Shown: one piece after another, positions 52,756 to 63,561 of the stretch | Position numbering within the stretch: the first letter of the stretch is position 1 | How the letters are laid out: each line of letters opens with the position of its first letter | Assembly: GCA_965237955.1 (NCBI GenBank) | Contig: OZ250169.1 | Location: 4,064,001-4,128,000 of the forward strand | DNA from: Candidatus Marinacidobacterales bacterium | Lineage (GTDB): Bacteria; Acidobacteriota; Vicinamibacteria; Marinacidobacterales; SMYC01 | Reading direction: 5' to 3' | DNA length: 64,000 nt | The notes under the pieces: generated by a model | The model's input: only the letters and a program-made list of their open reading frames with translations | What the model was told of the DNA's origin: nothing | The model's database searches: none | Made by a program: the position numbers and the translations under genes

Positions 52756-53111
52756 CTACCCGAGGCTCTGTTGCACCAGTTCTTCGGTGAGCGTCAATAC
52801 GTACCGCCCATCGTCGAGCTTCTCGAGATGCCCCTCCTGGAATGGATCGAACTCGAACGACTTGATGACGCGGTTGTAGACGTCCTTGAGCGCACGGGCG
52901 CCGACGCGCGGTTGGAGAGCCGCCTTTTGCGCGATGAGATTCTTCGCGCCATCGGTAATCCGGATCTCGATCTTGAAGCGCTCGAAAAAGCGCTTCGAGG
53001 CTTCGAAGATCGAGTCTTTCGTCCCCACGAAGATCGTCTCCAGGATTTCCGGGGTGAGCTCGCCGAGCACGAGGGTCGTATCGAACCGCGACAAGAACTG
53101 CGGCATCATCC
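52756..53111 (-). pseudogene. ClpX-like AAA+ ATPase C-terminal fragment, cut by IS5
   Basis: GMMPQFLSRF..VGARALK; begins at the IS end. Confidence 0.75.
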
Positions 53112-54198
53112 TGCCTTGGTGCACAACTCCGATAGAGGCCGAGAGCTCGCTTGGCCCCGACTCCCATCATCCGATCATCTCGCTATCAGGCATCCCGAGC
53201 GCCGTCATCGTGTTGAGAATCTTGCACCCGATCCTTGCCTCGACTCTCTGTGCCGCCAACCCTCTCGCTCGCATCGCTGAGCCCACGATAGCCTTGTAGC
53301 GATGGAACGTTGTCTCGACTTTGCTCCGTTTGCTGTAGCCCGATTCTGTGTGCCACTTTCGTTTGCCGAGCCGAGCTTGTGCTGCAATGTTGCGATTGCG
53401 CTGTCGGCTGCTCGCCGGCCCCGATGCGAGCTGGGCGCCCTTGCGCGGCGGTATCAGCACCCTCGGCGAGCAATGAGCGCTGTGATTCTCGATCGCCTCA
53501 TAGACGCCGCCGGCGTCGTATGCGGTGTCAGCTCTGGCCGATGAGATGGGACTGTCGATCTGTCCGACAAGCGATGCAACCCGCGATGAATCGCGGGCTC
53601 TTTTGCTCGTCAGCTCGCCGGCGACGACTTCGCCAGTCTGCTCGTCGACACACAGATGGAGCTTGCGATAGTCCCTGCTCTTTGGTGCTCTGCGCAGCTG
53701 GCCGGCGTGGACAGCGAGACCGCTGCTGTCGATCAAGATGTGCAACGGCGTCTTCTGCTTGTCTTGGTAGAAGGGGACCTTACCCAGCTTCGCCTTGCGC
53801 CTCGAGATCGTGGTGTGATCGGGCACATCATTGTCTAGCTTCATCAGAGCGAACAACGATCGCAGCAATCCCTCGCTCTGCCTAGATGACAGATGAAACA
53901 CCATGCCCAGGGTGACAGCCGTCTCGATGGCGTGGTTCGAGTACTTGCGTTGACGGCCCGGTTTCCTCCTCCTCGGCCGGGGCGCGTCCCAGTTCACAAG
54001 CTTGCCGGCGGTGAGCGAGATCCAGACGGTCAGGCTCCCACGGTTGCGTAGACCCGCCTCATATTCACGCCAATTCCTCACGCGATAGGCCTTCTTCACA
54101 TACTTCCGCTGAGTGCGTTTGAAAATGCTCATGGGGAACCTCGAATCCGTGAGTAAAGGACAATTGTGGACCGAGATCGCGAGTTGTGCACCAAGGCA
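53112..54198 (-). mobile_element. IS5-family element, copy B (transposase 54132-53167)
   Basis: Same 18-bp IR and 1087-bp length as copy A; protein differs at S/T in EQxGE; no TSD. Confidence 0.95.
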
Positions 54199-54273
54199 GC
54201 CCATCGCGACCTATTCTGCGTTCTGGTTCGCCTGGGCCGCCTTCAACCGAGACACGGAGATTTATTCCCCGTC
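54196..54273 (+). repeat. 3' end of a DUF3179-like gene; exact 78-bp inverted copy of 63303-63380
   Basis: Base-by-base identity; encodes QPIATYSAFWFAWAAFNRDTEIYSP. Confidence 0.92.
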
Positions 54274-54369
54274 GACCGCCGCTTCCCCATAACCGGCGAC
54301 GCCGCTTCGCCTCGCCACTTGCAACCCAATCGCTCTCGGCACTCGGCGGGCGTTGCGGCCGTCGCTTTC

Positions 54370-55170
54370 ATGCTGAGTGGAATGGCCGCTTCGGCCGAGG
54401 CCGGCGCCTGGACGCTCCCCAGGGGACAGAACTGGCTTCAGCTCGGTTTCATGTTCCAGGACACGAGCGAGCGTTACTTCTTGGACGGCAGCCGCATCCC
54501 CTATTTCTTCGACGGCAGGAATCGAACCCAGGCCTTGTTTTTCGACTACCAACGAGGCCTCACCGATAGGCTCGACGTTAAGGTACAGTTTCCCATCTTC
54601 CGCATCTCCTTCGACGACTTCAGCGACGATCGCACCAGCACCGGCCTGGGTGACTTGCGGCTGGAAGCCCGCTACAACTTCGTTAAATCTCCGCTGGTGG
54701 CCGCCGTGGGAGGCACCATCAAGTTTCCTACCGGGGAGTTCGTCAACGATGCCGAGATCGTTCCCGTGGGAGAAGGCCAATACGACTTCGACCTCTTCGT
54801 CGAAGTAGGCCGCTCCCTCTGGCCGAAGCCGGGCTACGTCACTGGCAAGATGGGTTACCGCTGGCGCGCGAAGAACCAGGAGACCGGCATTGATCAGGGC
54901 GACGAGATCCTCTGGCACATCGAGCTCGGCTGGCAGTTCCATCCGCGAGTGACGGTGAAGGGGCTTTTCCGGGGTCTCTACGGTCTCGACTCCACCAGCT
55001 TCGACCTCATCATCGAATCGCTTCGTCGCGAGGTCGTCTACTTCCAACCAGGAGTCACCTTCGCGGTCACGGAAGCTTCAGGCATCGAGCTCACCGTCCC
55101 CATTTCTCTCCGCGGTCGCAACTGGCCGGCGGGCCCGGTTCTGGTTATCCTTTTCACCCAAAACTTCTAG
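54370..55170 (+). CDS. Putative outer-membrane beta-barrel protein
   Basis: AEA signal cleavage site, AWTLPRG, GLGD, KFPTG, amphipathic strands, C-terminal Phe. Start uncertain. Confidence 0.65.
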   Translation: MLSGMAASAEAGAWTLPRGQNWLQLGFMFQDTSERYFLDGSRIPYFFDGRNRTQALFFDYQRGLTDRLDVKVQFPIFRISFDDFSDDRTSTGLGDLRLEARYNFVKSPLVAAVGGTIKFPTGEFVNDAEIVPVGEGQYDFDLFVEVGRSLWPKPGYVTGKMGYRWRAKNQETGIDQGDEILWHIELGWQFHPRVTVKGLFRGLYGLDSTSFDLIIESLRREVVYFQPGVTFAVTEASGIELTVPISLRGRNWPAGPVLVILFTQNF

Positions 55171-55305
55171 GAGCGCACCGGCATTTAACGTGTTGCGATC
55201 TACCAGGGGATGCCGATTCTTACAGCCGGCGAGACTTCTCGTTCTACATAACTCGTTGCAATTCTATGAATGGACGTCGACCTCAAAAGGAGAGGATGGT
55301 AGTCA

Positions 55306-56475
55306 ATGTCGAGATGCAAGCTAAGCCTTCGACTGTGTTCCTTGTTCAGTCTCGCTCTATGTGGGTTAGACACGTCGACCGCTTTGGGCTCAGCCCAAGA
55401 AAACGTCCGATCGTTTCAGGTCACCGCTTCTAGGTTCCAGTTCCAGCCTTCCCGCTTGGAAGTCAACCTGGGCGACCGAGTACGCATCATCTTGCGCTCG
55501 ACGGATGTGGATCATGGATTTGGTCTGCCCGTTTTCGACGTCGAGGCAAACATCCCAGCAAGTGGTGAGCCCGTCGCGATCGAATTCACCGCCGACAAGC
55601 CGGGTACCTTTCCCTTCGGCTGCACCACCTTTTGTGGAGATGGACACTTCGGCATGGTGGGTGAGCTGGTGGTACTCTCCGCTGAAACTGTAGGAGTGGA
55701 CGCGGTAGAGGCCAACTTAGTGGAGCCGAATTTCACCTTGATCAATCTCCCCACCACTCGGCGGCTTCCCCGGAACCGGTTTGCCTTCCGCGTCACCCAT
55801 CGCTTCCGCCGTCCTCTCAGTCAAGGAAGTCCTACGAATCTTTTCGAAGATCTGTTTGGCTTGGATGGCGGAGCCGAGATAGGCCTCGAGCTCCGCTATG
55901 GGTTTTCGCCGAGGACGCAAGTGGGATTCTACCGCACAAGCGATCGAACCATCGAGCTTTCGGGACGGCACAATCTGTTTGAACAGGGAGGGAGTCCGAT
56001 CGGAGTGAGTATTGCCGTGTCGATGGAGGGAATGAATAATTTCCGAAGCGAGCGCTCGGCATCGGTGGGCGTCGTTGTCTCCCGTAGGTTCGGGGGTCGC
56101 GCCGCCGTCTATTTGGTGCCTCGCTGGGTTAGCAATACCAATTTGCTAGAATTACCAGGCGAGCACGGAGGAACGAATCGTCTTCTAGACAGCTCCACAC
56201 TCATCCTAGGTGTTGGCGGGCGGCTATTGCTTTTCGATATGGTGGCCTTGGTCGGAGAGATTTCACCCCGACTAGCTGGATTTGACGAAAGCATTTTCGG
56301 AGGAGGCGAACCCGATTTTAGCGCTAGCTTCGGCATCGAGAAGGTTTTCGGCGGTCACGTATTTCAGGTCAATTTCTCGAATCACTTGGGTACAACGTCC
56401 GCTCAACTTGCTCGTGGGCAACAAGGTCCTGAGGACTGGTTTATTGGATTCAACATTTCGAGAAAATTCTTCTAG
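55306..56475 (+). CDS. CuA-type cupredoxin fused to a DUF5777-like beta-barrel
   Basis: Signal peptide; DVDHGF..CTTFCGDGHFGM; then LINLPTT..FRVTHRF..FGLD..GFNISRKFF. Confidence 0.75.
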   Translation: MSRCKLSLRLCSLFSLALCGLDTSTALGSAQENVRSFQVTASRFQFQPSRLEVNLGDRVRIILRSTDVDHGFGLPVFDVEANIPASGEPVAIEFTADKPGTFPFGCTTFCGDGHFGMVGELVVLSAETVGVDAVEANLVEPNFTLINLPTTRRLPRNRFAFRVTHRFRRPLSQGSPTNLFEDLFGLDGGAEIGLELRYGFSPRTQVGFYRTSDRTIELSGRHNLFEQGGSPIGVSIAVSMEGMNNFRSERSASVGVVVSRRFGGRAAVYLVPRWVSNTNLLELPGEHGGTNRLLDSSTLILGVGGRLLLFDMVALVGEISPRLAGFDESIFGGGEPDFSASFGIEKVFGGHVFQVNFSNHLGTTSAQLARGQQGPEDWFIGFNISRKFF

Positions 56476-56626
56476 ATTCATCCCCCGGCCGCCCGTCGGG
56501 GCTTACTTTACAATTGGACATTATTAGGCCTGTCGGAGCTTGTGGGTATGAAATCAGCATCAGGACTCTCTAAACAGAGAAGCCAGCGAGCACTGCACGG
56601 TCCGTCTTCGATTAGGAACCGGCATC

Positions 56627-58006
56627 ATGTGCAAACATGACATTCGTTCTGCAATAGCGATAACCGTCCTTATAGTCTTTCTGTGTGCACGGAGTCTTAG
56701 CAGTGCGCAGACTAAGGATGGCTCCACACCGATAGTTGAAGAATTTGTTCTGCTTCTGGTCGAGGATACAGCGCGTCGTGAGCAGGCCTTTGCTGTCATT
56801 GACGAGCAGTGGCAGGATACTTTCACACCCATGTTGTTGGAGGTTCTCAACTTGACTCGCGATCCGTCATTTGCCGTGCGCCTGAGGCAACTCCTAGAAA
56901 CTAAGACCAAAAAAAAGTACCAATACGATGTCAACAAGTGGTACGAGTGGATCTGGAGTCAGGAACCGCAAGTTCATCCGCGTTACGCCGATTTCAAAAG
57001 TAAGTTATACGGCCGGATCGACCCGAAGTTTGAAGACTATTTCAGCAATGAACGCACCGCGAAGATCCGACTAGATGAGGTGCGTTGGGGGGGGGTACGC
57101 CAGGATGGCATCCCGCCGCTGCGCTATCCCAAGATGATCGCCGCCAAGCAGGCCGATTATCTGGACGATGACGGGATCATCTTTGGTCTCGAGGTCAATG
57201 GTGATGCGCGTGCCTACCCCAAGCGCATCCTGGGTTGGCACGAGATGTTTGTCGATGATGTGGGTGGCGTGCCGGTGGCCGGTGTTTATTGTACCCTGTG
57301 CGGGACCATGATCCTGTACAAAACGGTTCACCAAGGGGTCAACCACGAGTTAGGTACCAGTGGATTCTTGTATCGTTCCAACAAATTGATGTATGACCAA
57401 AAGACACAGTCGCTTTGGAATACGATCTGGGGACAACCGGTGATTGGGCCACTTGCGGATCGGGACATCACACTGGAGCGGATGAGTGTCGTGACGACGA
57501 CCTGGGGTGAGTGGCGTCGTCGACACCCCGACTCACAAGTGCTTTCCATAGATACGGGATACGAGCGCGACTACTCCGAAGGCGCCGCCTACCGGGACTA
57601 CTTTGCCACGGACAAGCTCATGTTCAGCGTGCCCAAGCTGGATAAACGCTTAAAAAACAAAGATGAGGTCCTGGGTCTGATCTTTAGCCGGCATCCGGCT
57701 AAGCCTCTCGCTATTTCGGCGAAATATCTGGCCAAGAACACCCTCTATCACGATCGCGTAGGCAATCTACAATTCGTGGTGCTTACAGATCCGTCCGGCG
57801 CCAATCGGGTTTACGAAACCAAGGGGATCACTTTCAAGAAGTGGGATCTCGAGAGAACAGCAGTGGACGAGGACGATGGGCGTTGGACGCTGAGCGAAGA
57901 CCAACTCGAGTCTTCCGACGGCCGCGTGCTTTACCGGCTACCTGCCCATCGCGCGTTCTGGTTCGGCTGGTATTCGGCTTACTCGAACACACGGTTGGTC
58001 CGATAG
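56627..58006 (+). CDS. DUF3179-family exported protein
   Basis: GGVRQDGIPPL, RAYP..WHE, YCTLCGT, GTSGFLYRSNKLMYD, AFWFGW. Confidence 0.88.
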   Translation: MCKHDIRSAIAITVLIVFLCARSLSSAQTKDGSTPIVEEFVLLLVEDTARREQAFAVIDEQWQDTFTPMLLEVLNLTRDPSFAVRLRQLLETKTKKKYQYDVNKWYEWIWSQEPQVHPRYADFKSKLYGRIDPKFEDYFSNERTAKIRLDEVRWGGVRQDGIPPLRYPKMIAAKQADYLDDDGIIFGLEVNGDARAYPKRILGWHEMFVDDVGGVPVAGVYCTLCGTMILYKTVHQGVNHELGTSGFLYRSNKLMYDQKTQSLWNTIWGQPVIGPLADRDITLERMSVVTTTWGEWRRRHPDSQVLSIDTGYERDYSEGAAYRDYFATDKLMFSVPKLDKRLKNKDEVLGLIFSRHPAKPLAISAKYLAKNTLYHDRVGNLQFVVLTDPSGANRVYETKGITFKKWDLERTAVDEDDGRWTLSEDQLESSDGRVLYRLPAHRAFWFGWYSAYSNTRLVR

Positions 58007-58048: not shown

Positions 58049-61000
58049 CTATCGCGGCGGACTCGAATCGAGCGTCAGCGGCTCCTTAGCCGGGAAGAAC
58101 TCCACATCGAGCGCCGCCGCCACCTGGTCCCGGAAGCGCCCCACCTCCTCCGCCAAAACCAGGTTCGTTTGCTCGATTGCTTGCTCTAGATCCTCTTCGG
58201 CTGCCTGCAGATGCAGCCGCTCCGCCTCGGTGGGCGCGTCGCGTGACGGCGTGAACGTGCCGAGGGCGCCGTCGCCGGTGAGGTCCAAAAGCTGCGGTAG
58301 CACGTCGTCGGGCCAGCTCTCCATCCCCTGAATCCGCTGGGGCCCTCCGTCGAGATAAAAGTTCATCGTGTCTCCGGTGAACAGCACCTCCACGTCGGTG
58401 AGCGCCTCCTTGAGGTCGCCACCGGCCGATGCCAGCTCCTTGGCGGTACCGTCGCTCGCCCCGCGGTTGGCCTGGACTTGTTCGACCACGCGGTCGACGG
58501 CACGTTTCGCGTATCGCAGACGATTGACTGCTTCCGTGGCGACTTCCACGCGCTGGCCCACGGTGATGAGGAAGTCCAGCTTCTCGCGCTGGGCCGCGAT
58601 CGGGACGTCGAATCTCGGATCCTCGCGGACCTCGACCGCCGCGCTCACTTCCTCGCCCGTGAGCTCGATGCGAACGGTGTAGCGGCCGGGCAGCACTTGC
58701 GGCCCCGGGTGGAGCGACGGGGCCGATGTCACTTCCGCAGGAGGCAGGCGGATCGAGTCCCGACGCAAGTCCCACGCGGTCCGGTTGATGCCCGGCTTGG
58801 CCGGAGCCTCGAACGTGCGAATCGTGGCACCCGCCTCGTCGAGGACTTCGATGGTCACCTTCGCGGTGTCGCTTGCTACGGACTCGGTAGAAATGGAGTA
58901 GGTCACGAGCGCCCCGTACGGCCGATTCTCCCCAATGAACATTCCATCCCCGTTGCCACGGGTCATATACCGGCGCCACAGAAGATGGCGAGTGGTCACC
59001 GGAACCTCGAACAAGTGTAGCGGCCGGTTTGAGATCGCCGGATCGCGCGCCAGCGCGCGCAGCGGCCCCACGTCGTCCAGGATGTACACCGAGCGCCCGT
59101 GGGTCGCGATCACCAGGTCGTGATCCCGAGGATGCACGACGAGGGCCCGGGTCGGAGCACGCGGGAGTCCGTGACGCCACAGATGCCACTTCTGACCTCC
59201 GTTCAGCGAGACGTACATGCCGTATTCGGTGCCGAGAAACAGCAAATTCGCTTCGACGGGATCCTGCTCGATCACATGAACGAAGTTGAATGGCTCGATG
59301 TCCGCGGTGACCAGGCTGGTCCAGGTGGTGCCGTAATCCATGGTCTTGAAGACGTAGGGCGTGTTGTCGCCCCGACGGTGATCGTCGAAGGTCACGAAGG
59401 CCGTGCCACCCTCGAACTTGGAGGCCTCGATGTGCGGCACCCAGCTGTTCGGGCGCACGCCGCGGATCCGCTCCACCACGTTGACCCAGGTGCCGCCGCC
59501 GTCACGCGTCAGCTGCACGTTGCCGTCGTCGGTGCCGACCCAGAGCACCCCACGCTTGACCGGCGACGGCGCGATGGTGAGGATCGCGGTGTGGTTTTCC
59601 GCTTCGGTGTCGTCGCGCGAGAGCCCGCCGGATTGGTCCGCCATCTGCTTCTCGGGGTCGTTGGTGGTGAGGTCTGGGCTCAGGAGGGTCCACGTCGTTC
59701 CCATGTCCGTGCTGCGGTGGACGAACTGGCTCCCGAAGTAGAGCGATCCATCGTGGGGATCGATGGCCATCCCCGGGTTCCAGTTGTAGCGGAGATCGAT
59801 CCCCTCGGGATGGGCGGGCCCGATCGTGTGGCGCTCACCGGTTTGAAGATCGGATCGGACGATGTAGCCGGCCTCCCTCGTGGAGTAAACGTAGCGCGGG
59901 TTTCCGGGAACGGCGAGCGTCGCGAAGCCGTCGCCGGATCCCACCTCCTTCCAGTCGGAGAAGCCGATGCCGACGTTGTTCCACACCGAGCTCGGTCCGT
60001 GCCACATGCCGTTGTCCTGGAGCCCGCCCATGACGTTGAACGGCGTCGCCAGGTCCACGTTGATCTTGTAGAACTGGCCGAGCGGCAAGTTCTCGATGAA
60101 GCGCCACGAGGCACCCCGGTCATGTGAAAGGGTGACCCCGCCGTCATTGCCGTCGATCAGGATCTTGCCGTCGAGGCTCACCCAGAGCGCGTGGTGATCC
60201 CCGTGCACCCGCCCGTTTTGGAGCCTGCGAAAGTTCTTGCCGCCATCCTCCGAGAGATTCAACGTCCCCACCAAGTTGTACACACGGTTCTCGTTGACGG
60301 GGTCCACCACCAACCTCGCGAAGTAGAACGGGCGTCTCGCGATCGATCGCAAGCCGCCTCTATCGCTTACGACCTTCCACGTCTCGCCGCGGTCGTCGGA
60401 GCGCATCATGACGCTGTGTTTGGCCTCGACCACCGCATAAACCACCTTGGGATTCCCCGGCGCGAAGGCGAGCCCTATGCGACCGAGCTCGCCCTCCGGG
60501 AGACCTTCTCTCGGACTCAGCCGCTTCCAGCTCTCGCCGCCGTCGTAGGTGACGTGGAGCCCGCTTCCCGCTCCACCCGAGCGGAAAAACCACGGCCAGC
60601 GACGGTGATCCCACATGGCGGCAATGACGTGGTTAGGGCTCCCGGGATCCATGACGAGGTCCGCGGCACCTGTGGTTTCGTTCATGTAGAGCACGTTCTC
60701 CCACGTCTTGCCGCCGTCGGTGGTCTTGTACACGCCCCGGTCCTCACTCTCCTTCACGTGTTGCCCAAGGCGCTCACGTAGGCCACGTCCGGATTGCTCG
60801 GGTGCAGCACGATGGCGGCGATCGCCCCCGTCGACTCGAGCCCCACATGTTGCCAGCTCTTGCCGCCGTCGAGCGACTTGTACACCCCGGTGCCGACCCC
60901 GGCCGAGTTGCGGCGGCCGCGCTCACCGGTGCCGATCCACACCAGCTCGGGCGCCGCCTGGTAGATCGCGACCGCTCCGATCGACGTTGCAGGAATGCCG

Positions 61001-61260
61001 TCCGTGAGCGGTCTCCACGTCACGCCGCCGGAGGTGGACTTCCATAGACCGCCCGTGGCCGAGCCCACGTAGATAATGTTGGGGTCGGTGTCGACGGCAT
61101 CAATGTCGCTGATACGGCCGCTCATCCCGGAGGGGCCGATGCTCCGAATTTTTAAACCGCTAAGCTGGGTAATGTCCACCGTCTGGGACTGCGCTGTGGA
61201 CGCCGCGACAAGGATAGTGGCGAGGAAAACTGTGAAAGAGGCGAGAAAACCAGCGTACAT
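58049..61260 (-). CDS. VPS10/BNR-repeat glycosyl-hydrolase-like protein (frameshift ~60755)
   Basis: RSIGPSGMSGRI, repeated S/TxDGGxxW, GGLQDNG, ATHGRS. Confidence 0.88.
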
Positions 61261-61548: not shown

Positions 61549-63302
61549 ATGGATGACCAAAGATTCACCATGAACCGCCGTCGCTTCATGGCCTTGTCGG
61601 CAACAGGCCTCGGTTCGCCGTTGATGCCGGGCGCGCTCGCTGCCGTGGCTCAAGACGCGGAGACCATCACCATCGAGATGATCGAGGCCGCGCAAAAGAT
61701 CGCGGGGTTGTCCTTTACGCGCGAAGAGCAACAGTGGATCCTCGAGAGGCTGAACGGAGAGAGAAGCCCGCTCGCGGCTTTCGACACGCTCAGAGCCGCC
61801 AACCTTGGCAACGCCACCCAGCCGGCCACCGTCTTCAATCCCGTCCCTCCCGGCAAGGAGCTCCCGAGCGAGCGAAGACCTCTGAAGCGACAGGAGATCG
61901 ATGTCTCGATGCCCGCGACGGACGAAGAGCTGGCGTTTCTCCCGGTGACCCATCTAGCCAAGCTGGTGGAGAGCCGTCAAATCAAGCCCACCGAGCTCAC
62001 CGAGCTGTATCTCGCGCGCCTGAAAAATCATGACCCCACGCTCCACTGCGTCGTCAATCTCACCGAGGAGCATGCGCACCGGCAGGCGAAGCGAGCCGAC
62101 GAAGAGATTGCCGCGGGGACTTATCGAGGCCCCCTTCACGGAATCCCCTGGGGAGCGAAAGACTTGCTTGCCGTTCGGGGGACCAAGACGACGTGGGGTG
62201 CCTCACCGTACAAGGACCGGGTCATCGACACCGACGCCACCGTGTACCGGCGGTTGACGGAGGCGGAGCGATACTGATCGCCAAGCTATCGACGGGTACG
62301 CTGGCCGACGGTGACCGATGGTTTGGAGGACAAACCCGAAACCCTTGGAACACCGAGCAAGGATCCAGCGGCTCTTCCGCCGGGCCCGGCTCGGCGACGG
62401 CGGCCGGACTGGTGGGCTTTTCCATCGGGACGGAAACTGGAGGATCCATCATGTTCCCATCGGCTCGAAACGGCGTCACCGGTTTGCGGCCTACCTTCGG
62501 ACGGGTCAGCCGCTACGGAGCCATGGCGCGTGCGTGGACGATGGACAAGATAGGACCGATGTGCCGCTCGGCCGAGGATTGCGCGCTCGTGTTCGACGTC
62601 ATTTACGGACCCGACGGGAAGGACAATACAGTCCTCGACGTGCCCTTCAACTGGGATGCCACGGCCGACGTGACCAAGCTGCGCGTGGGCTACCGGCGCT
62701 TGGCGTTTGAAGGTGAGATCCCTGAGGATCCGGAAAACCCAGAGAGCGCCGCACTACGACGCCAGACCCGCAAGAACAACGAAGAAGCGTTGCGAGTCAT
62801 CCGCTCTCTGGGCGTCGAGGTGGTACCGTTTGAGCTACCTGATGTGCCTACCGAAGCCCTCGGCTTCATCGAGAATACGGAATCGGCTGCGGCCTTCGAT
62901 GAGCCGACACGAAGCGGAAAGCTCAACCTTATTAAAGAGCTGCCCGAGATTAAAGAGCTGCCCGAGGAGAGCCACGGGCCGGCGGACCACTTCCGCACCG
63001 CCAATTTCATTCCCGCCGTCGAGTACATCCAAGCCAACCGCTTACGTATGCAGGTGATGGAAGAAGTGGATGAAGCCATGTCCGATCTCGACCTCTTCAT
63101 CTCAGCGGTCGGTCAAGGAAGCAGTGTCTACTTGACCAACCTCACCGGTCATCCGGCGATCAGCATGCCCAGTGGCTTTTTTCAGGGCTCACCCACGAAC
63201 CTGATGTTTACGGGCAAGCTCTTTGGTGAGCCGGAAATCCTGCTGCTGGCACATGCGTTCCAGGCGCAGACCGATCACCACTTGAAGCATCCCAAGCTCT
63301 AG
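61549..63302 (+). CDS. Tat-exported amidase-signature enzyme (frameshift ~62265)
   Basis: NRRRFM, GIPWGAKD, GSSGSSAG, IGTETGGS; internal 18-bp tandem duplication at 62931-62966. Confidence 0.88.
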
Positions 63303-63545
63303 GACGGGGAATAAATCTCCGTGTCTCGGTTGAAGGCGGCCCAGGCGAACCAGAACGCAGAATAGGTCGCGATGGGCTGCAACCTGGCCCCTTCGAGCTC
63401 GCCCGTGAGAGCGATGCCCGTCAAGCTCCACACCGTGCCCGTCTCTCTATCTTTGAGGTTGAACGGGAAGCTCCCCTCCTCGATCACATCGAAGGTCAGG
63501 AGCCGGCCGGGCGCATCGGCACCTGCGGCGAGATCTATCAACCTT
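63299..63545 (-). pseudogene. DUF3179-like C-terminal fragment
   Basis: LKDRETGTVWSLTGIALTGELEGARL..AFWFAWAAFNRDTEIY. Confidence 0.8.
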
Positions 63546-63561
63546 CGGTTCACCACCCATT

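Follow-up and report, generated by a model that had tools for sequence, protein, structure and literature searches.

We analysed a 64,000-nucleotide stretch of contig OZ250169.1 (the window) from a Candidatus Marinacidobacterales bacterium of the acidobacterial class Vicinamibacteria, and within it a gene that joins a cupredoxin domain of the CuA type to a predicted outer-membrane barrel of the Pfam family DUF5777. This gene, referred to here as the fusion, is the third of four open reading frames (ORFs) that follow one another on the + strand: a DUF3179 remnant, an upstream barrel gene, the fusion and an intact DUF3179 gene. The co-oriented order is as an earlier reading of this DNA (the preliminary description) had reported it, and the motif that it gave for the last gene, CTLC, is present as YCTLCG. 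The fusion is made up as follows; residue numbers are those of the fusion protein throughout.

55306..56475, + strand: fusion gene, 389 aa, comprising signal peptide, CuA-type cupredoxin, linker/plug and DUF5777 barrel (from Pfam, an AlphaFold2 model, Foldseek and VIA matches and 56 aligned fusion homologues)
55402..55680, + strand: CuA-type cupredoxin domain, about residues 33-125, with ligands H70, C106, C110, H114 and M117
55735..56472, + strand: DUF5777 barrel (PF19089), 12 strands in the model (from the model, VIA matches and a 15-sequence alignment)

Profile searches, structure prediction and a neighbourhood survey had been proposed as checks on this gene; the first two bore out the two-domain layout. 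Pfam placed Cupredoxin_1 (PF13473) at residues 26-123 (E 2.4e-8, above cut-off) and DUF5777 at residues 144-388 (E 1.5e-29; 103.5 bits against a gathering score of 23.1), with COX2 (PF00116) at residues 49-117 marginally below its cut-off (21.3 bits against 22); a DUF3179 match was obtained for the intact downstream gene. The N-terminus is signal-peptide-like and the terminal residue is Phe. An AlphaFold2 model built on the 56-sequence alignment comprised a cupredoxin and a 12-strand barrel, separated by about 30 residues ahead of barrel strand 1 (mean predicted local distance difference test score, pLDDT, 80.9; predicted template modelling score 0.66). A complex prediction of barrel (136-389) and cupredoxin (30-127) scored 0.01 and was used neither for nor against any reading. 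An assembly artefact as the origin of the gene order was ruled out, as a single contig of run X13 covers 54244-56625 and contigs of several other studies tile the barrel-fusion-DUF3179 order at 96-99% identity; the junction near 56600-56625 is overlapped by just 25-30 letters in most of the tiling contigs. In one RNA run, short pieces covered the fusion at a depth of 4-5, the same as in other places, which gives no evidence of transcription.

We then turned to the cupredoxin domain. Its ligand motif, read off the sequence, is H70-x35-C106-x3-C110-x3-H114-x2-M117, standing directly ahead of the Phe-ending barrel as originally noted. All five ligands are kept in 54 of the 56 aligned fusions at a spacing of H-x34/35-C-x3-C-x3-H-x2-M: H70, C106 and C110 are each present in 56/56, H114 and M117 in 55/56. 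Position 108, which presumably contributes a backbone carbonyl, is Thr in this fusion and Glu in 34/56. The top Foldseek match was the CuA domain of the ba3 oxidase (2cua, E 1.5e-8), and in VIA comparisons 1ehk (Z 14.0, root-mean-square deviation (rmsd) 1.3, 94 aligned residues) was tied with nitrosocyanin (Z 14.4). The ratio of non-synonymous to synonymous rates (dN/dS) against the relative G009 was 0.15 for this domain, a rough NG86 estimate. In a six-frame scan of the 8.13-Mb genome, the pattern C-x3-C-x3-H-x2-M occurred four times: in the fusion gene, in the oxidase subunit II gene and in two stretches with nearby stops. Judged by its conserved ligands and modelled fold, which resembles the ba3 CuA domain, the domain is a five-ligand cupredoxin of the CuA type, as the preliminary description had proposed. 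CuA centres have been described in respiratory oxidases and N2O reductase. They are stable sites of electron transfer, are not known for copper trafficking and usually serve as electron entry sites. The accessible part of PMC7558416 likewise reports CuA from these two enzymes.

The CuA domains of oxidase subunit II (Thermus ba3) and NosZ share the cupredoxin fold and the His/Cys/Cys/His/Met spacing. In contrast to these enzymes, the fusion has no subunit II membrane anchor, adjacent subunit I or NosZ propeller, and is tethered to an outer-membrane barrel. An orphan oxidase subunit II was ruled out by the sub-cut-off scores (46.6 for TIGR02866 against a cut-off of 147.7; all COX2 and NosZ NCBIfam scores of the fusion were far below cut-off) together with the position of the lone COX1 match of the genome, about 2 Mb away. 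A NosZ fragment was likewise dismissed, given the missing CuZ propeller and the low NosZ scores: the NosZ profile match on the fusion was limited to profile positions 487-576, and a search for the NosZ catalytic domain found none, with 0/5 genomes tested exceeding the NosZ cut-off. The earlier statement that neither oxidase subunit I nor a NosZ catalytic domain lies nearby thus stands.

The C-terminal domain is predicted to be a 12-strand outer-membrane barrel. Its top VIA match was KdgM (Z 18.8, rmsd 2.1, 166 aligned), followed by NanC, FapF (Z 17.7), COG4313 (16.8) and the autotransporters EstA (16.2) and NalP (15.6); the outer-membrane enzymes LpxR (15.4) and OMPLA (12.8) came lower, and PcoB (12.1) ranked beneath six other barrel types. 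The COG4313 channel Pput2725, FapF and KdgM/NanC also have 12 strands, yet DUF5777 is only 10-13% identical to barrels of these types and has invariant residues of its own (H165, R166, G185, D187, R210, H351, F353, G381, F382 and R386 in the 15-sequence alignment); in the accessible parts of the sources, none of these channels is described with a fused redox centre. Translocators of the autotransporter/FapF type are similar in fold, but the fusion model has no helix through the pore. The alignments to 4rl8 and FapF take in the segment ahead of strand 1, which we read as a plug. According to the accessible part of PMC4493636, the COG4313 plug enters the pore from the periplasm and leaves a narrow channel that binds amphipathic molecules. 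The barrel model has long loops on one face and short turns on the opposite face, and four cupredoxin superpositions left stray aligned residues (264 and 310-311) in short turns read as periplasmic. For this reason the CuA domain is predicted to lie on the periplasmic face.

We extended the analysis to the DUF5777 family. PF19089 matched in 47 of 151 genomes sampled across the phylum, mostly once per genome, and a profile search over all 50%-identity clusters gave 2,905 members. Among the best 150 of the 2,905 representatives, the N-terminal part contained a haem motif in 43, CuA in 6, a ligand-less cupredoxin in 1 and another long extension in 8, the remaining 92 having a short extension. Hence, of the 58 long N-terminal extensions, 49 contain a haem or CuA motif. 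The fused haem domains are of several types: class I cytochrome c, a PSCyt-like domain, choice-of-anchor V and a mini-domain like the Cyc2 haem region. When the mini-domain profile was run against the 93,752 ORFs of the source genome, the top match (E 0.0017) was a Cyc2-like ORF (hhalign 90.8% over 29 columns, CxxCH driving part of the signal); this ORF and the mini-domain subgroup have the pattern CxxCH...N-x-F-G-x-x-F-x3-G in common. A Cyc2-like cytochrome-porin gene of the source genome (source contig 7433566-7435062, - strand; L161:5567-7063) encodes 499 aa with the motif string AIPAFARKY...CQTCH...PKL and ends in Phe; downstream lie a secreted protein and then a cupredoxin gene breaking off into ATPase-like sequence. 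The Cyc2 motif also occurs in a second ORF, at 7017807-7018517.

For the phylum set, 36 loci were retrieved from the 47 matching genomes; one of the 47, G063, counts among the matches but contributed no locus. A few of the 36 loci recur in the GTDB set described below. A haem fusion was present in 13/36; in 24/36, the gene itself or a close neighbour on the same strand had a haem motif (in two of these, the motif proteins are not cytochromes). By the same rule, random anchors in the source genome gave 2/267 fusions and 9/267 for gene or neighbour; these contrasts are overstated, since the sampled genomes are related and a single genome supplied the background, and DUF5777 kin are not independent in any of the counts. 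Read by eye, the neighbours in the phylum loci also included two Rieske-type ORFs. In the one Bacteroidota locus seen, four consecutive genes encode a CxxCH lipoprotein, YceI, a further small protein and DUF5777. At two loci (L138, L140), the DUF5777 gene lies beside a multihaem cytochrome of about 1200 aa with 29 motif matches and a weak MtrC/MtrF match, and is flanked by genes for a monohaem cytochrome and for a CxxCH-containing membrane protein resembling DUF2231; these loci are candidate porin-cytochrome conduits in which the barrel is small. A FastTree of 216 barrels (those with >200 aligned residues plus every third unfused match, P0242 and other partial barrels being left out) placed all 60 CuA fusions in one strongly supported clade, interspersed with unfused barrels, and the haem fusions outside it. 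The label required a minimum of 14 changes for the CuA fusion (6 forced by starred branches) and 22 for haem (14 forced), and therefore points to repeated fusion or fission. Mainly because the barrel is fused to several unrelated one-electron domains, we read it as a redox partner; its sequence relatives suggest that DUF5777 is an outer-membrane barrel whose one-electron centre can be swapped.

The fusion itself recurs well beyond the source assembly. The full CuA motif was found in 54 of the 120 best protein matches, two further full-length fusions deviating at one ligand, and the ESM Atlas holds two clusters with the fusion architecture (52 and 91 members, commonest in Acidobacteriota) as well as a Gemmatimonadota type-1-copper cluster, 13% of whose members also match DUF5777. 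Named fusion loci are nearly all from Acidobacteriota, mainly Vicinamibacteria. The CuA-barrel fusion is thus recurrent and already in databases under automatic names. A full-text literature search, with subscription papers and supplementary tables outside its scope, returned no paper naming DUF5777, and the listings from searches combining CuA and barrel terms included no description of CuA on an outer-membrane barrel; a redox association of the family was not found described in the literature searched. A search for longer DUF5777 fusions gave two proteins only, which is weak evidence. Two proteins (P0127, P0006) have two DUF5777 matches within one chain.

We next examined the usual gene context in the 80 best loci from GTDB, of which 65 had enough flank for neighbour counts. 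Four of the 80 were fusions, and 29 had a separate secreted CuA gene just 5′ of the barrel. Upstream of the barrel, 52/65 loci had a HAMP kinase and 54/65 a sigma-54 regulator. A metal-site partner was present in 58/65: CuA in 28, a PSCyt-like monohaem lipoprotein in 29, a cupredoxin-like lipoprotein in 43 and a His-x-His-rich lipoprotein in 8, all 8 with CuA. The partner lipoproteins carry long Gly/Ser/Pro linkers. A sigma-54-type site followed the regulator in 25/61 loci, against 0.66 expected and 0 on the opposite strand, with a pattern refined after a stricter first one had given 8/61. Such a site also lies 5′ of the three other well-flanked fusions, each then followed by a His-rich lipoprotein gene. 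Judging from these neighbourhoods, unfused Vicinamibacteria barrels mostly stand in a putative sigma-54 operon with separate genes for CuA, monohaem or cupredoxin lipoproteins. The His-rich lipoprotein (L002:9180-9557, L018, L074, L059) is small, with a twin-arginine-like leader and three His-x-His motifs; it had no Pfam match and occurred only with CuA. The source genome encodes an aa3-type oxidase and PCuAC and gave no match to Sco; clear copies of the usual partner genes were not found in it. A close match to the kinase/sigma-54 regulator pair lies at 1365087-1369960 of the source contig, where the kinase gene is split and no DUF5777 operon follows.

On balance, we favour the fusion being a redox port, in which a CuA cupredoxin sits on a predicted outer-membrane barrel of 12 strands. 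On this reading, a small reductant in solution would come into the barrel from outside and give up its electron to CuA at the periplasmic mouth; the electron would then pass inward via a c-type cytochrome toward the aa3 oxidase, a direction suggested because CuA is usually an electron entry site. CuA would here take the place of the haem used by most other fused DUF5777 members, and its copper would be loaded by the general machinery of the genome, with PCuAC present and Sco unmatched. Substrate, direction and topology are all putative. Since the invariant charged barrel residues (H165, R166, D187, R210, H351, R386) are net basic, bare Fe2+ is somewhat less likely as the substrate than a negatively charged solute, for instance a chelated metal or a small shuttle of the quinol type; assuming that these residues face the lumen, their charge hints at an anionic solute when set against the Asp and Tyr proposed as Fe sites of Cyc2 in the accessible part of PMC13741234. 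A single centre cannot span the membrane, so that the substrate should be dissolved and enter the pore, an argument made for Cyc2 in the part of 10.1101/228056 available to us. The same argument, with one centre and a small 12-strand barrel, rules out a direct wire to solid minerals. More tentatively, and a little short of an even chance, DUF5777 as a whole may be a widespread but so far unrecognised group of redox ports in the outer membrane whose one-electron centres are interchangeable (several haem c domains, CuA and possibly type 1 copper), the source gene being the haem-free CuA version.

The preliminary description had suggested a copper analogue of Cyc2 or a Cu-uptake pore, and the first of these ideas is supported as regards the mode of action. 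As far as the accessible parts of 10.1101/228056 and PMC13741234 describe it, Cyc2 likewise consists of a signal peptide, one N-terminal electron-transfer centre and a C-terminal outer-membrane barrel, and in both proteins the centre is predicted at the periplasmic mouth, so that the substrate must enter the pore. The idea that the fusion works like Cyc2 gains strong comparative support because several unrelated haem c domains occur fused to barrels of its family. In contrast, the cofactor is CuA instead of haem, the barrel has 12 strands instead of 16 and is KdgM/FapF/COG4313-like instead of OprO/P-like, and its invariant residues are mainly basic; neither CxxCH nor the upstream AXPXFAR[Q/K][T/Y] motif, both given for Cyc2 in 10.1101/228056, is present in the fusion. 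By sequence and model, the fusion is Cyc2-like in layout and not Cyc2 by motif, cofactor or barrel size.

The genes around the fusion tell of a rearranged locus. The neighbouring features are:

53112..54198, - strand: IS5-family insertion sequence (IS), 1087 bp, terminal inverted repeats, NF033579 above cut-off
54197..54292, + strand: DUF3179 3′ remnant, cut by the IS5 element (78-nt identity; near-identical genome copies)
54319..55170, + strand: COG4313/Phenol_MetA_deg-type barrel gene (PF13557, E 5.8e-13)
56483..56501, + strand: terminator-like hairpin between fusion and DUF3179, weak
56627..58006, + strand: intact DUF3179 gene with YCTLCG (PF11376, E 7.5e-72)

The IS5 element has 80 full-length copies in the source genome. 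The remnant is a 78-nt, 100% inverted copy of 63303-63380, whose ORF matches PF11376, and resembles the 3′ end of the whole DUF3179 gene preceding the fusion in G009. The upstream barrel belongs to PF13557 (COG4313/MetA type), not to DUF5777; a plausible signal peptide suggests a TTG start at 54319, the first ATG being at 54373. In relatives, this barrel type had a divergent, opposite-strand DUF3179 match in 9 of 10 loci examined. This divergent pair, conserved in the source organism's order (L149-L156, L158), is a possible separate uptake-plus-redox module. A scan for sigma-70 promoters and terminators stayed at chance level, with 3 hairpins of this kind against 4.4 expected. The preliminary description was right that 55200-58000 is low in GC (0.539 against 0.602 +/- 0.023; lowest 1.4% of 2.8-kb windows).

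The intact DUF3179 shares 62-79% identity with proteins in the databases, of which several carry the label Pseudomonadota or Thermodesulfobacteriota, but no more than 56% with the copies in 40 relatives, and its gene was probably acquired horizontally, separately from the fusion. YCTLCG is kept in 120/120 close homologues. DUF3179 is probably a thiol redox protein, because it is listed as a selenoprotein family with a UxxC/T form in the accessible parts of PMC9312934 and PMC13188914. Two of its paralogues in the source genome (2330749-2331630 and ~5874200-5875136; L162, L163) carry a TGA codon in frame where the first Cys would stand, in the contexts W-TGA-PLT and W-TGA-PLS, and are candidates for this form. 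Foldseek gave no match for DUF3179 at E <= 0.001 and VIA none at Z >= 8; the best were weak matches to Rieske-type domains (residues 354-445, Z 7.3, rmsd 2.8, 88 aligned), and a thioredoxin-type fold was not among the matches listed. Also noted were an amidase gene with a convergent DUF3179 3′ end at three places (window 61549-63556, where it is split across two frames; genome 115152-117322 and 4129304-4129590), a BNR/Vps10-repeat protein gene split into two ORFs in different frames (window 58049-61260, - strand) and the C-terminal end of a ClpX-like ATPase gene, truncated by the IS5 element (window 52756-53124, - strand).

How do these data bear on other explanations? The preliminary description had treated the four genes as one dedicated system, with the CxxC protein DUF3179 reducing the CuA cysteines or delivering copper. 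DUF3179 does lie directly 5′ of the fusion in the relatives G009 and G013 and on both sides of it in the window, and the invariant YCTLCG, the UxxC/T selenoproteins of its family (same sources) and the missing Sco match would suit such a role; given PCuAC and no Sco, a thiol reductase function is possible. However, DUF3179 matched in 0/80 GTDB and 0/36 phylum loci and was adjacent only in loci of the source family, the intact copy resembles proteins labelled as coming from other phyla more closely than it does the copy of any relative, and at least five paralogues stand in unrelated contexts of the source genome. In addition, the usual neighbour of DUF3179 is the COG4313 barrel instead of DUF5777, 13/13 relatives' loci with a copy of the intact DUF3179 had no barrel or CuA within 1.5 kb, and the weak hairpin separates the gene from the fusion. 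Where the CuA-barrel module is intact elsewhere, the recurrent neighbour is a His-x-His-rich or cupredoxin lipoprotein, and the His-rich one is, from its occurrence, a better candidate copper chaperone. We therefore consider a dedicated system highly improbable: by its distribution, the four-gene cluster is no conserved system, and the neighbouring DUF3179 and COG4313 genes were probably carried along by IS-driven rearrangement. We give even less credence to a non-redox barrel, an outer-membrane enzyme or plain solute channel whose redox neighbours are merely co-regulated. Sugar-acid porins are the top fold matches, LpxR and OMPLA are 12-strand enzymes, the invariant His-Arg-Asp set could be catalytic and many DUF5777 members are unfused; yet co-regulation hardly explains repeated fusion to unrelated one-electron domains, or the haem and CuA motifs in most of the long N-terminal extensions.

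Second to the redox port ranks copper acquisition or homeostasis, an unlikely explanation in our view, in which the barrel admits or releases copper, the CuA domain and lipoproteins bind it or change its oxidation state, and a metal-sensing sigma-54 two-component system controls the module. The two invariant His of the barrel, the PcoB match, the His-rich lipoproteins confined to CuA loci, the frequent cupredoxin lipoproteins and the kinase, regulator and sigma-54-type sites all fit. Against this, PcoB scored below six other barrel types, the commonest fused partner across the family is haem c and CuA is an electron-transfer site instead of a trafficking site. No copper ATPase or multicopper oxidase is among the recurrent neighbour clusters listed; read by eye, heavy-metal-ATPase or HMA-like ORFs occur in at least two phylum loci. 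In favour of this explanation, the copper-induced curA operon of Myxococcus xanthus, under CorSR, similarly combines a HAMP kinase and sigma-54 regulator with a PF13473 cupredoxin, lipoproteins and a PF13442 cytochrome c (PMC3707914), but also has CopA and the multicopper oxidase CuoA, neither of which recurs beside DUF5777, and the accessible part of that source mentions no barrel. PcoB and OprC/NosA are outer-membrane barrels tied to copper; OprC is TonB-dependent with a CxxxM-HxM site, and in what is accessible of PMC7558416 neither OprC nor PcoB is described with a CuA domain. A display device is a more doubtful proposition. Here, an autotransporter- or FapF-like barrel would put the redox domain or neighbouring lipoproteins on the outer surface, where exposed centres swap electrons with external acceptors or donors. 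The FapF, EstA and NalP matches include residues ahead of strand 1, the N-terminal domains vary as passengers do, the partner lipoproteins have long linkers and about 30 residues lead from the cupredoxin to the barrel. On the other side, the model lacks a pore helix, the superpositions put the cupredoxin on the periplasmic face and the COG4313 plug enters from the periplasm (PMC4493636, as above).

Several observations weigh against the redox port itself. The data indicate no substrate, a plugged 12-strand barrel is narrow (going by the accessible part of PMC4493636), linker 127-136 has a pLDDT <50, and the clue to a periplasmic placement of CuA is indirect. Across the family, 92/150 representatives lack a fused domain, 7/65 GTDB loci have none of the four partners and the enrichments are inflated by the relatedness of the samples. 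At the source locus, the sigma-54-type site and the His-rich partner are absent, and the PSCyt-like partner, as an electron acceptor, was not found in the source genome. The source copy may moreover be losing function or drifting, its barrel appearing weakly constrained. Barrel dN/dS against G009 is 0.60 (again a rough NG86 estimate), and of 26 codons that differ among strains (a partial list), 17 differ non-synonymously and 9 synonymously, with no ligand affected. A full-length fusion occurs in three of the 18 genomes of the source family (one with an internal stop), barrel-only pieces in two and an IS-cut start in one; the copies in G013 and G015 are broken. In G015, from another genus of the family, a 1.3-kb block at 98% DNA identity (window 54196-55496 = L111:8103-9405) starts at nearly the same point of the DUF3179 remnant and is cut within the fusion, which suggests a recent transfer. 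Given the barrel dN/dS, the strain differences, the IS copies and the several split genes in the window, we therefore keep the family-level reading independent of the source copy.

If the redox port holds true, a common, mostly uncultured phylum would have an outer-membrane electron-transfer route that screens for the Cyc2 motif would miss, and Acidobacteriota would possess a haem-free way of drawing electrons from dissolved external reductants into respiration. As a single 389-residue chain whose coloured centre, active in electron paramagnetic resonance, would report its own reduction, the fusion should be a good test object. The DUF5777 family, in turn, is likely an unstudied bacterial way to take electrons from small incoming molecules.

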